A stretch of DNA of 64,000 nucleotides from a virus, in IMG/VR virus record IMGVR_UViG_3300046518_000226, positions 30,123 through 94,122 of that record; one strand, given 5' to 3'. This document shows positions 4,258 to 54,237 of the stretch, in pieces. How positions within the stretch are numbered: the first letter of the stretch is position 1; the number at the start of each line of letters is the position of its first letter. The notes under the pieces were generated by a model that saw only the letters and a list, made by a program, of their open reading frames with translations, was not told the origin of the DNA and did not search any database. Made by a program: the position numbers and the translations under genes.

Positions 4258-4320
4258 AAAAAACCCGCCGATTTGAGCATCACTTACTCCGAGGAGGTTG
4301 AGAGGCTTGGCGGGTTTTTG
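4258..4320 (-). terminator. Large-loop terminator-like hairpin
   Basis: AAAAACCCGCC ... GGCGGGTTTTT. Confidence 0.55.
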
Positions 4321-7177: not shown

Positions 7178-8329
7178 GTGTCCCTCATCCTCGACCTCAC
7201 GCCCGTCAGTCAGCACGCAACCGACGCGGCGCTCGAAATGCTGTTCAAGTCCACACACGACCATGACAAGGGCATCTGGAACCCGCACGAGTCCGTGCTG
7301 ATCCGGCGCCTCGTCGAGCTGTTCAGCGACCGCGGCCTCGATCGGCTTGAGCACGTGAAGCAGCAGATCGTCGCGTGGGAGAATGGCGACCACCACAAGC
7401 CCGGCGCCCCTATGCCGTCCAACGTGCCAGGCATGATGACGCGCTGGTCGGATGCCGAGCTGGGTCTGGTGCGCGTCTACCTGGAAGCCTTGCCGCCGGG
7501 CTCGTGGACAATCGACGACCACATGATGGCGGTCGACTACGTCGTTCAGCGCTACCTGCCAGCCGACGAGCTGCGCACCGAAGCGGAGTGGATGAGCACC
7601 CGAGCCAGCCTCATGGGCAAGGTGCAGGCCAATATGGAAGGCCAAGCCACACCGCAGCAGGCGGACAAGATCCTCGCTGCCCTGCCGTCCACCCGAGCCG
7701 AGGCGTCTCACCAGTTCAAGCTCAACCAGCAGCAGCAATCCGTCATGGCGTTCGGCAATGCCCGGGCAGCTGAGAACGTGCGCGCGCTGACCGAGGATGT
7801 GCGCCACCGGATGCGCGGCGCGGTCATGCAGCACCTGGAGCAGCAGCAGACGCTGCCGGCCGGCGTGCCAGGTGAAGCGCTCCAGTCCAAGCTGGTCGAT
7901 CAGTTCGGCACCCTGAACCGGGACTGGCGGCGCATCGCGGTGACCGAGGCCGGCGAGTGCCAGACGCAGGGTTTCATCGCCAGTCTGAAGCCTGGAACGA
8001 AGGTGCGCCGCGTCGAGATGTACGCGACTGCCTGCAACTTCTGCAAAAAGATCCACGGCAAGATCGCCACCGTCGTCTCTCCCGACAAACCCGACAAGGA
8101 CTGGGAGAACGAGATCTGGGTCGGCAAGAACAACATCGGCCGCTCGGCGTCGCCCCGCAAACGCGTTGGCGACACCCTGGTAGACCGCGACCCGGACGAG
8201 ATGTGGGCTCTCCCCGCCGGCCTGGCCCATCCGCACTGCCGCGGGCGGTGGGTGCTGGTGATCGAGGACGAGGCCGGTGATGATCCTGACTTCGCGGAAT
8301 GGCTGCGCGAGACGCTTGGCGGGGAATAG
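7178..8329 (+). CDS. Head morphogenesis protein (Mu gpF/SPP1 gp7-like)
   Basis: RDWRRIAVTE, ACNFC, HPHCRG motifs; GTG 7178 with AGGA RBS. Confidence 0.8.
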   Translation: MSLILDLTPVSQHATDAALEMLFKSTHDHDKGIWNPHESVLIRRLVELFSDRGLDRLEHVKQQIVAWENGDHHKPGAPMPSNVPGMMTRWSDAELGLVRVYLEALPPGSWTIDDHMMAVDYVVQRYLPADELRTEAEWMSTRASLMGKVQANMEGQATPQQADKILAALPSTRAEASHQFKLNQQQQSVMAFGNARAAENVRALTEDVRHRMRGAVMQHLEQQQTLPAGVPGEALQSKLVDQFGTLNRDWRRIAVTEAGECQTQGFIASLKPGTKVRRVEMYATACNFCKKIHGKIATVVSPDKPDKDWENEIWVGKNNIGRSASPRKRVGDTLVDRDPDEMWALPAGLAHPHCRGRWVLVIEDEAGDDPDFAEWLRETLGGE

Positions 8330-8367
8330 CTGCTATATTTGAGCAATCAACCCACTGAGTGCTCGCT

Positions 8368-8562
8368 ATGAAACTGCTAATCGCCTTCGCCCTGTCCTTC
8401 GTCACCCTCGCAGCTGCCGCTGACACCGGCAGCTGCTACACCATCGGCAGCCCCGATGCTCGCGCCTACTGCCTCGCTAAGGCCCGCCAAGACTCCAGCG
8501 TCTGCTACACCATCCAGAACCCTGACCTGCGCGCGATGTGTATGGCGGAGGTTCGCCGCTGA
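8368..8562 (+). CDS. Small exported Cys-rich repeat protein
   Basis: Signal peptide MKLLIAFALSFVTLAAAA; two CYTIxxPDxRAxCxA repeats. Confidence 0.8.
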   Translation: MKLLIAFALSFVTLAAAADTGSCYTIGSPDARAYCLAKARQDSSVCYTIQNPDLRAMCMAEVRR

Positions 8563-8563
8563 A

Positions 8564-8572
8564 TGATATGCT
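8564..8572 (+). promoter_or_regulatory. Extended -10 promoter candidate
   Basis: TG-A-TATGCT immediately upstream of RNA 2. Confidence 0.5.
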
Positions 8573-8577
8573 GACCT

Positions 8578-8942
8578 CAGCGGTTCACCCGTGGTGAGCG
8601 CGCGCAATGCGATAACGCCCACGGGCAGCTCTTGACGCTGGTGTCCAGCAATGGTGGTCGGGGTTTGCCAGCCTCGAAAAGACTGCCGGGTAGCCGTATA
8701 AGAGGCCGCTACCGATCTGTAAGTAAGCGTGCGGCGGATGGCTTAAAGATGCGCCACCCGATGAGGAGAATGGCTGCGGCCACTGTTCCGTGTAACTGGA
8801 GTCGGGATCTGAGTTCCCGGAAAGCCTGCCCGTTAGTCGGGGCGTGCACCAAAAGCCACAACGTAATGCAGTGGTGACGTGGCACGAGCCGCAGCAGAAG
8901 CGAGGATACCAGCCACGCAAAGCCGCCTACGGGCGGCTTTTT
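8578..8942 (+). ncRNA. Putative stand-alone structured RNA 2 (about 365 nt)
   Basis: Long-range helices 8637-46/8904-13 and 8773-80/8888-95, several internal hairpins, own promoter candidate and terminator, no credible ORF. Confidence 0.7.
8919..8942 (+). terminator. Intrinsic terminator
   Basis: AAAGCCGCC-TACG-GGCGGCTTTTT. Confidence 0.85.
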
Positions 8943-8970
8943 CATGCTCGCTGTTCCCTTCGCTCGCAGT

Positions 8971-8984
8971 CGTGACGGCACGAT
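8971..8984 (+). promoter_or_regulatory. Late promoter-like motif (protease, leaderless)
   Basis: CGTGAC GG CACGAT, 6 nt before ATG 8991. Confidence 0.7.
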
Positions 8985-8990
8985 GGCGAC

Positions 8991-9875
8991 ATGAACCAAG
9001 ACGAACAGCTGTTAGCTGATATCCCCGAATTCCTCAGCATCTCCGAGATGCTGAAAGCCACGCCTTCTGAGGAAGGTGGGGAACGCTTCATCTATCTGGA
9101 AGCCAGCAACGAGGGCGTCGACCAGCAGGGCGAACGCGTTCTTGCCAAGGCGCTGGAGGATAGCGCGAGCCACTTCCTCAAGTTCGGCAACATCGACCTC
9201 GACCACTTCACGATCATCGGCCAGCGCATGGGCTTGGCGAACCCGATGGCCTACGAAGTCGGCCGCCCTGTGGACGTGACAGTTCGCGGCGATCGCACCT
9301 TCGTCAAGGCGCAGCTCTACAAGGGCACAGGCGAACTCGCGAAGAACGCGAACATGGTCTGGGAGTCGATGACCCAGCTCAACCCGCCGGCGCGCTGGTA
9401 TCCGTCCGTGGGCGGCTCGGTGCTCGCCAAGAGCGTTCAGCTCGACCCGGCGACCAACGAGAAGGTCGGCTTGGTCACTAAGGTGCGGTGGACGAACATC
9501 GCCCTGAGCCGCACGCCGGTGAACCAGCACCTGCCAGCCGCGGGCACTGTGCCTCTGGCAACCTTCGCCAAGTCGCTCGGCGGTCTGGTGATGAGCAAGT
9601 CGCTCACCGCTGGCTACGGCTCGGACATGGCGAACCTGTCGGGCGGTGCGGCCATCCGCATGCAGTCGCTCGATGGTGTTCCGCAGTCTTACTACGAATT
9701 CCGCGACGAGATTTCTGGCGCGGTCAGCAGTCGTGAGGCCAATAATCAATCCCGAAACGGCTTGATCGCGTACTCAACGCAAAAATTCAATCTGTCGGCT
9801 GAAGAAGCTGCGGAATGGGTGGATCGCTTCCTGAGCGATTTGAAAAAACATCAATCTAACCGGAGCAATCCATGA
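8991..9875 (+). CDS. Prohead protease
   Basis: ASNEGVDQQGE, DLDH, SVGG, IALSRTPVN motifs; position before scaffold and capsid. Confidence 0.85.
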   Translation: MNQDEQLLADIPEFLSISEMLKATPSEEGGERFIYLEASNEGVDQQGERVLAKALEDSASHFLKFGNIDLDHFTIIGQRMGLANPMAYEVGRPVDVTVRGDRTFVKAQLYKGTGELAKNANMVWESMTQLNPPARWYPSVGGSVLAKSVQLDPATNEKVGLVTKVRWTNIALSRTPVNQHLPAAGTVPLATFAKSLGGLVMSKSLTAGYGSDMANLSGGAAIRMQSLDGVPQSYYEFRDEISGAVSSREANNQSRNGLIAYSTQKFNLSAEEAAEWVDRFLSDLKKHQSNRSNP

Positions 9876-52883: not shown

Positions 52884-53512
52884 GGTCGGTTGTCCTGGCC
52901 GCAGTTGCGGCAGTCGTGTTGGAAGCGTTGGCGATCGGAAATGAACCGGCCGCAGCCGGTGCAGTTGAAGACCATCTCGCGTGGTGGCTTCGGCTTGATC
53001 AGCTTGATGCCGGTGCCGCGTAGAGCCTGCTTGAGGTCGACGTCCTGGCGGTGCACGAGGCGCCTGCGAATGGTGTCGATGTAGTCGGCCGACCAGAGCT
53101 TGCGGGTGCCGGCCGCGATGCCGTCTGCGAACTGCTCACGCGCCTGCTCGATCGAGATGTTGGCGGCACGCCCGAGGTCTTCGGTCACTTGCCCGCGGTT
53201 GAAGCCGATCCAGTAGACATCATTGCCGTTCCAGTCGCCTGGCACGTGCACGTAGACGCGGCAGCCCGGGGTCAGCATGGCGTCGCTGGCGTGCTCATCC
53301 ATCAGCTGGTGATCAACGCCCCAGTGCGCCCGGGCGTCGATATAGTCCTTCGGCCAGGGGATATCGGTGTCGCGATGGCTGGTAGCCTGCTCCTGGGTGA
53401 ACAGCTCAGACGCGTCCAGATCGGTCACGTAGCCGCGGCGGTCTTTGCCCCAGAACTGCAAGCCGTCGCCAACGTGGCTGCGGCTGTCCTGCAGGTAGAA
53501 TTGGCGGCTCAT
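52880..53512 (-). CDS. Hypothetical with internal repeat and C-terminal Zn ribbon
   Basis: FYLQDSRS.VG..W..Y; CTGCGRF..C..CG. Confidence 0.8.
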   Translation of the reverse strand: MSRQFYLQDSRSHVGDGLQFWGKDRRGYVTDLDASELFTQEQATSHRDTDIPWPKDYIDARAHWGVDHQLMDEHASDAMLTPGCRVYVHVPGDWNGNDVYWIGFNRGQVTEDLGRAANISIEQAREQFADGIAAGTRKLWSADYIDTIRRRLVHRQDVDLKQALRGTGIKLIKPKPPREMVFNCTGCGRFISDRQRFQHDCRNCGQDNRP

Positions 53513-54237
53513 GGCGCCACCTCCAGCACCAGGTCGCCCATCGACGCTGGCCGAACGGTGTTGAAGCCGGCCTCGACCGACGCGAGCTGGTCGATCCAGT
53601 GGCGCTCGCGGTGGGTGATGTAGGCCGCACGGTCAGCGCAGCCCGCCGGATACGCGATCACCTCCAGCACGGAGAACTCCCAGTCGGTGATCACCGTGGC
53701 GGTCAGAGCTGCGTGGAACTTGCACGCGCTCGGATTGCTGAGGTGCTGCCACCAGCGGAGCGTGAATGGCTGCGTGGTCTGGCCGACGTAGGACATACCG
53801 GTGGACTTCTGGCGCACCTGGTAGATGACGGGCGGTGACCGGCCTTCGCTCGCCAAGCGGAATTCTGAAAGGTCGCGGAAGCGCGCGGCCTCCTTACATG
53901 CCTCGGTGCAATAGTCGTGGCTTTTGGTTTCGGTGTAATGGTCGTTGTACTTGTCGATCAGTTTGAACACCGTGCCGCACTCCTTGCACGGCGTGTCCTG
54001 GAAGCGCTTCAGCAGGTAGGTGTCGTGTTCGCCCAGCTCCTGAATGTGTAGGAGATAATCGTGCGCTTCTATGTCCTTGAGCCGAACGCTCATCGGAAAC
54101 TTGCGCTCGTACAGTTCTTCGACGAGCGCCCGAGCCTCCTTGCGCGATTCAGCCTCAACCTTGCCGCTGAACACTGGCGGCCAGGCCCACCCATTTTCCG
54201 GACTACGGCCCTTGATTTGGTAGTACCAGCTGGTCAT
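53509..54237 (-). CDS. GIY-YIG nuclease-domain protein
   Basis: VIYQV...YVGQT..R..QH...E..WI..GFN. Confidence 0.8.
   Translation of the reverse strand: MTSWYYQIKGRSPENGWAWPPVFSGKVEAESRKEARALVEELYERKFPMSVRLKDIEAHDYLLHIQELGEHDTYLLKRFQDTPCKECGTVFKLIDKYNDHYTETKSHDYCTEACKEAARFRDLSEFRLASEGRSPPVIYQVRQKSTGMSYVGQTTQPFTLRWWQHLSNPSACKFHAALTATVITDWEFSVLEVIAYPAGCADRAAYITHRERHWIDQLASVEAGFNTVRPASMGDLVLEVAP

Follow-up and report, generated by a model that had tools for sequence, protein, structure and literature searches.

Phages carry several orphan RNAs with elaborate folds, among them ROOL and GOLLD, which in some phages are located beside transfer RNA (tRNA) genes, as well as small RNAs (sRNAs) such as DicF and IsrK. 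ROOL and GOLLD are presented as forming RNA-only complexes in a cryo-electron microscopy report (10.1101/2024.12.08.627333), and the Pas sRNAs of E. coli prophages are put forward as an example of the moron type, that is, of accessory sRNA genes (10.64898/2026.05.13.724894). Here we analysed a stretch of 64,000 nucleotides (nt), hereafter the window, taken from a 94,122-bp virus record of IMG/VR, in which positions 8564-8942 of the plus strand constitute a predicted stand-alone non-coding RNA gene of about 364 nt, extending from its promoter to its terminator. The gene comprises two modules, A and B. Orphan structured phage RNAs are already known, but neither module matches any of them, and the arrangement in which other phages carry A alone, B alone or A followed by B is unusual.

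The RNA resembles ROOL and GOLLD in being an orphan, highly structured and phage-carried, with no associated protein gene, an often observed location beside tRNA genes and varying peripheral arms; it differs from both in lacking an Rfam match, in the size of its modules (about 190 nt), in its A, B or A+B modularity and in residing in Pseudomonas-type phages of high guanine-plus-cytosine (GC) content. With the moron sRNAs of phages and prophages it shares the promoter-RNA-terminator cassette set between phage genes, the presence or absence in relatives and the horizontal exchange, whereas those sRNAs display short single-stranded seeds and simple hairpins and the RNA of the window conserves multi-helix junctions and structured loops. 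The packaging RNA (pRNA) of phi29 is likewise a two-domain structured phage RNA (about 120 + 50 nt), and both the gene of the window and several of its relatives adjoin portal, protease or terminase genes. Nevertheless, pRNA is essential for packaging and universal in its group, while the RNA described here is accessory, since it is missing from a close relative (L002) and its position varies; moreover, no Rfam family (pRNA included, if present in the library) was taken as a match for the stretch at E ≤ 10. The cobalamin riboswitch (RF00174) gave a weak full-length alignment at 8754-8931, which we rejected: its score of 12.6 bits (E 1.1) falls below the gathering cut-off of 31.5 bits, the boxes come in another sequence along the RNA and none of the genes that follow is related to cobalamin. 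The same model detected nothing at E ≤ 5 in three other carriers (L052, L061 and L060). Several strings of module B (GCCACUG, CAGGAG, GGGAAGGC and GCGCAGGUAAGG) are reminiscent of cobalamin-riboswitch boxes, an identity that both the score and the motif order speak against.

Comparison with homologues establishes, at the level of sequence, an RNA that is non-coding, folded from the plus strand, covarying, modular, present or absent in close relatives and common to unrelated phages. Three pattern scans and two covariance models (R1 for module A, R2 for module B), with the invariant block identified from a metagenome contig (L013), yielded 19 gene copies in total. Among 13 sequences of module A, 98.5% of alignment cells were paired and both sides had changed in 16 of 30 pairs, a covariation reached by none of 500 shuffles; when the structure of module A was shifted by 1-3 columns, only 25-54% of cells paired. 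Among 10 sequences of module B, 95.9% of cells were paired and changes on both sides were found in 13 of 39 pairs. The U.G pairs of P4, P5b and P7 (Table 1) are invariant and would read as A.C mismatches on the opposite strand, which assigns the fold to the plus strand.

The original prediction had described a single pseudoknotted phage RNA of about 365 nt whose structure ought to covary. Its view of a structured, uncatalogued, independently transcribed and non-coding RNA agrees with our data; its architecture does not, since two separable modules appear instead, and the strong covariation found in both modules does not extend to the long-range helices that it had proposed. Four of its helices, CCCGTGG/CCACGGG (whose true coordinates are 8588-94/8619-25), CGGGGTT/AGCCTCG, GGTAGC/GCTACC and CGGGA/TCCCG, show compensatory changes in homologues and coincide with P1, P3a, P4 and P7. 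By contrast, the 10-bp helix 8637-46/8904-13, thought to close a domain of about 275 nt, is present in the minimum free energy (MFE) fold of the window but is no feature of the family, because its arms span A and B, each of which functions as a gene without the other. Its 5' arm forms the local hairpin GCUGG-UGU-CCAGC (P2) and is missing in L061 and L052, and the helix contains a G.A mismatch in Pseudomonas phage Touem01. Four further pairings compete with P5a, P5b, P6 and P8 and did poorly across 10 homologues: CGGATGGC/GCCACCCG paired in 65% of cells and GCTGCGGC/GCCGCAGC in 72.5%, versus 95.9% for the alternative structure, the hairpin GCCAC/GTGGC, which sits in the variable arm of P8, in 48%, and the pseudoknot CACTG/CAGTG in 52%.

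As had been anticipated, the open reading frame (ORF) at 8632-8877 does not appear to be coding, given its lack of conservation and the indels that interrupt it. The window and Touem01 are 71% identical here, with blocks of 20-34 identical bases alternating with variable stretches, and the indels of their alignment (1, 2, 6, 8, 10 and 19 nt) break the frame between blocks of 100% identity, leaving no common ORF. This ORF of 81 codons (TTG start) and a 54-amino-acid (aa) coding sequence (CDS) annotated in Touem01 lie in different frames. The hypothetical protein Touem01_00054 (L001:3192-3356), located wholly within module B, is probably a spurious gene call, as the window does not preserve that frame. 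The expectation that the RNA would fall outside the known classes was equally borne out. Rfam 15 (4227 models at gathering and permissive thresholds, including, where the library has them, transfer-messenger RNA (tmRNA), RNase P, 6S, C4, pRNA, ROOL, GOLLD, HEARO, Y RNA, riboswitches and ribozymes) assigned no family to 8564-8942 at gathering thresholds; the best permissive matches across 8300-9100 (E 0.57-9) were judged junk; eight homologous loci gave no Rfam match to the RNA, and ARAGORN called neither a tRNA nor a tmRNA gene in the window. A full-text search of the literature for the conserved strings returned one unrelated paper only. A template repeat of a diversity-generating retroelement and an internal repeat were also considered and discarded, no second copy longer than 19 nt occurring in the 94-kb genome. 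A candidate case of CRISPR-repeat mimicry is CACUGUUCCGUGUA, which may resemble a type I-F repeat.

Both ends of the gene proved as proposed. The extended -10 element at the 5' end has a counterpart ahead of every member of the family: a -10-like hexamer (TAnnnT) lies just upstream of all 19 copies at the same position, with the TGn extension found in Touem01, L013, L026, L061, L052 and L069. The pattern TGnTAnnnT is rarer than expected in the window (14 sites observed versus 28.5 expected). Transcription would start at about 8579, some 7 nt past TGGTAAGAT. The terminator at the 3' end, with a G+C-rich stem of 8 bp where an automated terminator scan made no call, is conserved in relatives, being kept in Touem01, in L013 and also in L002, which has no RNA. 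Beyond it the next gene has its own promoter, as predicted, in the form of a late-type motif. This motif, TCGTGA(C/T)-N2-(C/G)AnnAT, is kept 6-8 nt ahead of an ATG in L013, L066, L053, L067 and L070. The motif at 8970-8993 and its relatives are consistent with a phage-specific late promoter giving rise to leaderless or near-leaderless messenger RNAs (mRNAs).

Fifteen of the 19 copies include module A, either alone (L013, L021, L022, L023, L026, L027, L066, L055 and L053; nine copies) or followed by module B (window, Touem01, L060, L068, L061 and L052; six), and four consist of B alone (L067, L069, L070 and L071). L027 is "Streptomyces phage SF3" (NC_028952), and the metagenome contig L013 carries the 5' half only, at the site of the window. 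Four states are thus seen at the locus of the window: none (L002), A (L013), B (L067) and A+B (window and Touem01). In L002, whose neighbouring protein is 89% identical to that of the window, the insert is absent and the terminator and late promoter of the locus are kept. A similar series, with A (L022), B (L071) and A+B (L060 and L068), is seen at another, unrelated locus that precedes an MptE-like gene. Other copies are flanked by head-completion and MptE-like genes, precede an HK97-gp10-like gene or run towards the end of the large terminase gene. Since either module alone makes a complete RNA gene in other phages, each is predicted to have its own function. Each genome carries one copy according to models R1 and R2, and the GC content of the carriers ranges from 53 to 69%. 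Unrelated carriers have no DNA similarity, or almost none, beyond the RNA itself, which is 88-95% identical across ~115 nt, and a BLASTP comparison of all ORFs of at least 60 aa of the window's genome with five other carrier genomes found no protein common to all.

These observations are best accommodated, with a probability that we estimate at about 0.6, by an accessory ("moron") RNA gene that is exchanged horizontally and consists of two tandem modules acting in trans through their fold. In keeping with a moron, the gene of the window has its own promoter and its own terminator, a layout shared by 14 of the 19 copies, several of which have a terminator upstream too, and it is inserted between genes of a conserved module in a manner that differs among close relatives (L002, L013, L067, window and Touem01). 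The gene would be an insert separating late operons in a Pseudomonas-type phage of ~94 kb, and from its sigma-70-type promoter the host RNA polymerase could make the RNA apart from the phage late programme, possibly in lysogens too. The three-dimensional fold would enable the RNA to bind a conserved host protein or RNA, whether as a decoy, as a sponge or as a scaffold, and it is probably not the leader of a particular gene. Recognition by the fold and not by a linear seed is suggested because what is conserved comprises junctions and bulges, a C.C mismatch, G.U pairs that do not vary and loops of the UAA...GA type; a conserved host factor is suggested as the target because no phage partner protein is found. 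New structured RNA classes of such size usually prove to be catalytic, to sense ligands or to form the core of an RNA-protein machine, and modules A and B provide at least two well-supported candidate Rfam families. Among cultured phages, Touem01 (A+B) and SF3 (A only) are carriers, so that the function is directly testable, and, should its target be host defence or host RNA metabolism, the RNA would join a small number of known RNA-only counter-measures of phages.

Several observations weigh against this interpretation. In five copies (L026, L069, L060, L068 and L071) a terminator is lacking and the RNA continues into an ORF, and in three of them (L060, L068 and L071) a putative GUG start falls within the 3' arm of P5.0, which looks cis-regulatory. 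No terminator separates the upstream small ORF from the RNA, which could therefore also arise as the 3' untranslated region of the mRNA of that ORF. The family amounts to 19 copies only, several of them from related lineages, and shared ancestry inflates the covariation counts. Finally, the MFE is unremarkable (z = -1.3 on the plus strand and -1.65 on the minus strand), so folding energy alone proves nothing.

A bolder proposal, possible though on balance unlikely, is that A and B represent two new classes of complex-folded phage RNA that need no phage protein and are traded as cassettes, either as decoys of conserved host factors or as RNAs that self-assemble or belong to a new class of ribozyme. 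In the decoy version the neutralised factor might be, for instance, an immune sensor, a nuclease or a tRNA- or RNA-binding protein, and the exchange of cassettes among unrelated phages would explain why the RNA is almost the sole DNA that these phages share.

The main rival, which we regard as improbable, is a cis-acting leader (a riboswitch-like sensor, an attenuator or an element of processive antitermination) controlling read-through of the terminator or downstream translation. Some copies precede a terminator and others directly a ribosome-binding site and an ORF, a mixture of expression platforms that is typical of riboswitches; the GUG start within P5.0 would be that of the MptE-like ORF, and in L022 AGGAGG and a start codon come right after the terminator. 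Some members also contain GCUCUUGAC, a boxA-like string, followed by a hairpin; the string is, however, missing in L013, L021, L023 and L026. The genes found downstream are unrelated (a protease homologue, MptE-like, HK97-gp10-like and unknowns), and the copies are not always co-oriented upstream of a coherent gene set: that of L023 is convergent with the large terminase gene (terL), whose end it faces, and has no downstream gene, whereas those of L061 and L052 form islands with tRNA genes, antisense to all flanking ORFs. In addition, a separate promoter lies 3' of the terminator in the window, L027, L021 and L066, and inspection by eye of the terminator-bearing copies revealed no consistent antiterminator pairing.

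Somewhat harder to sustain is a base-pairing sRNA, in which the seed, directed against a host or phage mRNA, would be the invariant block at 8632-8651 or one of the conserved loops, and Hfq would bind the terminator U-tail and the purine-rich joiner. The stand-alone promoter and terminator recall prophage sRNAs, 20 nt are identical across the eight sequences of alignment A3, and the joiner of module B is ARN-like; but the block is mostly sequestered in P2 and is not found in L061 and L052, the conserved multi-helix junctions, bulges and non-canonical pairs go well beyond what a seed-type RNA needs, and the phage's own genome contains no complementary site of at least 14 nt.

Very doubtful, in our view, is a catalytic RNA, representing a novel class of ribozyme, or else an RNA-only particle that assembles by itself, a homo-oligomer like ROOL or GOLLD. 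The module size of ~190 nt, the conserved junction, the loops and bulges of the UAA...GA type and the GNRA and UNCG loops in the variable arms could suit such an RNA, as could the position beside tRNA genes in some phages and the lack of a partner protein gene. Nevertheless, no known ribozyme model matches, the modules are far smaller than ROOL or GOLLD, and neither a cleavage site nor intermolecular loop complementarity is evident, although loops were not compared between copies.

That the locus holds no functional RNA at all and reflects chance structure, a small protein gene or a site acting as DNA (pac, origin or operator) is scarcely credible. The ORF open in the window, the CDS annotated within module B of Touem01, the DNA palindrome GCTGG-TGT-CCAGC and the weak MFE z-score would speak for it. 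Against it, the two ORFs are in different frames, unconserved and broken by indels, compensatory changes keep pairing in at least nine helices, the invariant G.U pairs are strand-specific and slid structures pair poorly.

Table 1. Features of the RNA gene and its surroundings (positions refer to the window)
Feature	Position	Strand	Basis or remark
Module A, family of roughly 150-190 nt	8575-8726	+	covariance model R1, 130 bits, E 6e-39
5' domain of module A: P1 8588-94/8619-25 enclosing P1a 8601-04/8608-11, CAA loop	8588-8625	+	
Most conserved block UUGACGCUGGUGUCCAGCAA, holding hairpin P2 (8637-41/8645-49, loop UGU)	8632-8651	+	
P3 8654-58/8682-86 enclosing P3a 8660-63/8672-75, conserved 8-nt loop UUUGCCAG	8654-8686	+	
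P4 hairpin: 6 bp, C.C mismatch, G-C and U.G pairs, 7-nt loop AUAAGAG	8689-8713	+	
Module B, second family, ~180-190 nt, closed by P5.0	8727-8918	+	covariance model R2, 171 bits
P5.0 closing helix	8727-31 and 8733 with 8913-18	+	
Arm P5a 8734-38/8787-91, P5b 8739-43/8778-82, bulge 8744-50, P6 8751-55/8772-77	8734-8791	+	
P7 hairpin (CGGGA/TCCCG)	8802-8820	+	100% of cells paired; 2 pairs changed on both sides
P8: 8836 and 8838-39 with 8890-92, plus lineage-specific variable arm	8836-8892	+	
Purine-rich joiner	8893-8912	+	
Extended -10 element TGATATGCT	8564-8572	+	read from sequence; directly 3' of the stop codon of the small ORF
Intrinsic terminator: stem 8920-27/8932-39, UACG loop, U-run	8920-8942	+	read from sequence
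Upstream 67-aa Cys-rich ORF, signal-peptide-like start	8359-8562	+	own extended -10 at 8331-8339
Late-type phage promoter motif TCGTGAC-GG-CACGAT	8970-8984, 6 bases before ATG 8991	+	sequence
Next gene	8991-9875	+	its homologue in Bordetella phage PHB04 carries the annotation head maturation protease

Within module A, the 5' domain differs in length among members and its stem is maintained through replacement, P1 reading CCCA/UGGG in Touem01 and CCCG/CGGG in L022, with three of the four pairs of P1a changed on both sides. The eight sequences of alignment A3, although otherwise ~69% identical, do not differ at all in the adjoining 20-nt block; L061 and L052 lack this block, L060 has it in remodelled form, and within P2 a single swap from G-C to C-G occurs, in L055. 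P3 and P3a are paired in 100% of cells, with changes on both sides in 3/5 and 3/4 pairs, respectively, and the loop of P3a follows the consensus YUGNCCAR. A further arm, P3b, is optional and variable, being present in most members and absent from the window. P4 is paired in 100% of cells as well, four of its eight pairs having changed on both sides; its U.G pair is invariant in 13/13 sequences, and its loop conforms to the consensus AUAAGAK, of the UAAGA type.

The closing helix of module B is preserved in several versions (GCGUG/CACGC, CACGUG/CACGUG, AUGGUG/CACCAU, GUCGUG/CACGAC and GGGUG/CACCC). The arm formed by P5a, P5b and P6 is paired in 98-100% of cells, with three of the five pairs of P5a changed on both sides and a pair of P6 (columns 33/52) that is U-A in six sequences and C-G in four; its conserved 7-nt bulge, UAAAGAU in the window, has the consensus UAAWRAU. 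In P8 the three foot pairs are invariant and the next three (8843-45/8884-86) have all changed on both sides, and the sequence and length of the variable arm differ by lineage. GNRA and UNCG loops occur in the variable arms. A candidate pseudoknot, CUGG 8796-99 with CCAG 8909-12, is paired in 89.7% of cells and shows a single compensated pair (L069), which weakly favours it. U8775, a bulged base of P6, and A8893, 3' of P8, covary (columns 54/176 of alignment A7: U-A in four sequences, A-U in three and A.A in three), and could form a tertiary pair or be the trace of an alternative conformer such as the helix 8773-80/8888-95.

Regarding the spread of the family, ~50,700 isolate phage records yielded the RNA only in Touem01 and SF3. 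A plasmid search did not find it, and in 400 sampled genomes of Gammaproteobacteria the terminator hairpin was matched and the RNA not found, a result that does not by itself show absence. Exact patterns (block E of module B, the P4 flank and P4 by its loop only) had no match in viral contigs, nor did one exact pattern in metagenome contigs, and among relatives gathered through the neighbouring protein (Burkholderiales L011 and L012, and metagenomes) the RNA was present only in L013. Two other leads were dismissed: a 24-nt match in Stenotrophomonas phages (Moby and others) is a chance occurrence inside a CDS on the other strand, and for the 60-nt spacer of L002, considered as a remnant of module B, local alignment backs the terminator only. 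In SF3, a phage of 69% GC whose recorded host is Streptomyces flavovirens, module A (53460-53655) is 91-95% identical to the copies of contigs of 53-57% GC, which means either transfer of the RNA across very distant hosts or a host assignment in need of checking. Near the RNA in SF3 (L027/L035), the strand given for many annotated genes seems to be wrong.

The closest cultured relative of the source phage is Touem01, a myovirus of P. syringae with a genome of 91.6 kb; Touem01 is predicted to be temperate and encodes an integrase and a ParA-like protein (PMC11256456). In other carriers, tRNA genes adjoin the RNA gene on the same strand (L052:6594-6750, L061:5800-5872 and L060:3902-4078). TGGTATCCT, which is the -10 element of the RNA gene in L061 and L052, also occurs in the window on the minus strand at 8903-8911, inside module B, probably by chance, as it is not conserved in Touem01. 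The sole gathering-level Rfam match in the window is an abiF RNA (RF03085) on the minus strand at 4263-4314 (48.7 bits versus a cut-off of 37), and a weak abiF-like match of 25.6 bits lies just 3' of the module A gene at L031:1466-1503. The small ORF upstream of the RNA gene had no match in a Pfam search; it contains two repeats of the form CYTI..(P)D.RA.C.A, is kept in Touem01, L002, L013 and L067, and resembles a second accessory gene adjoining the RNA gene.

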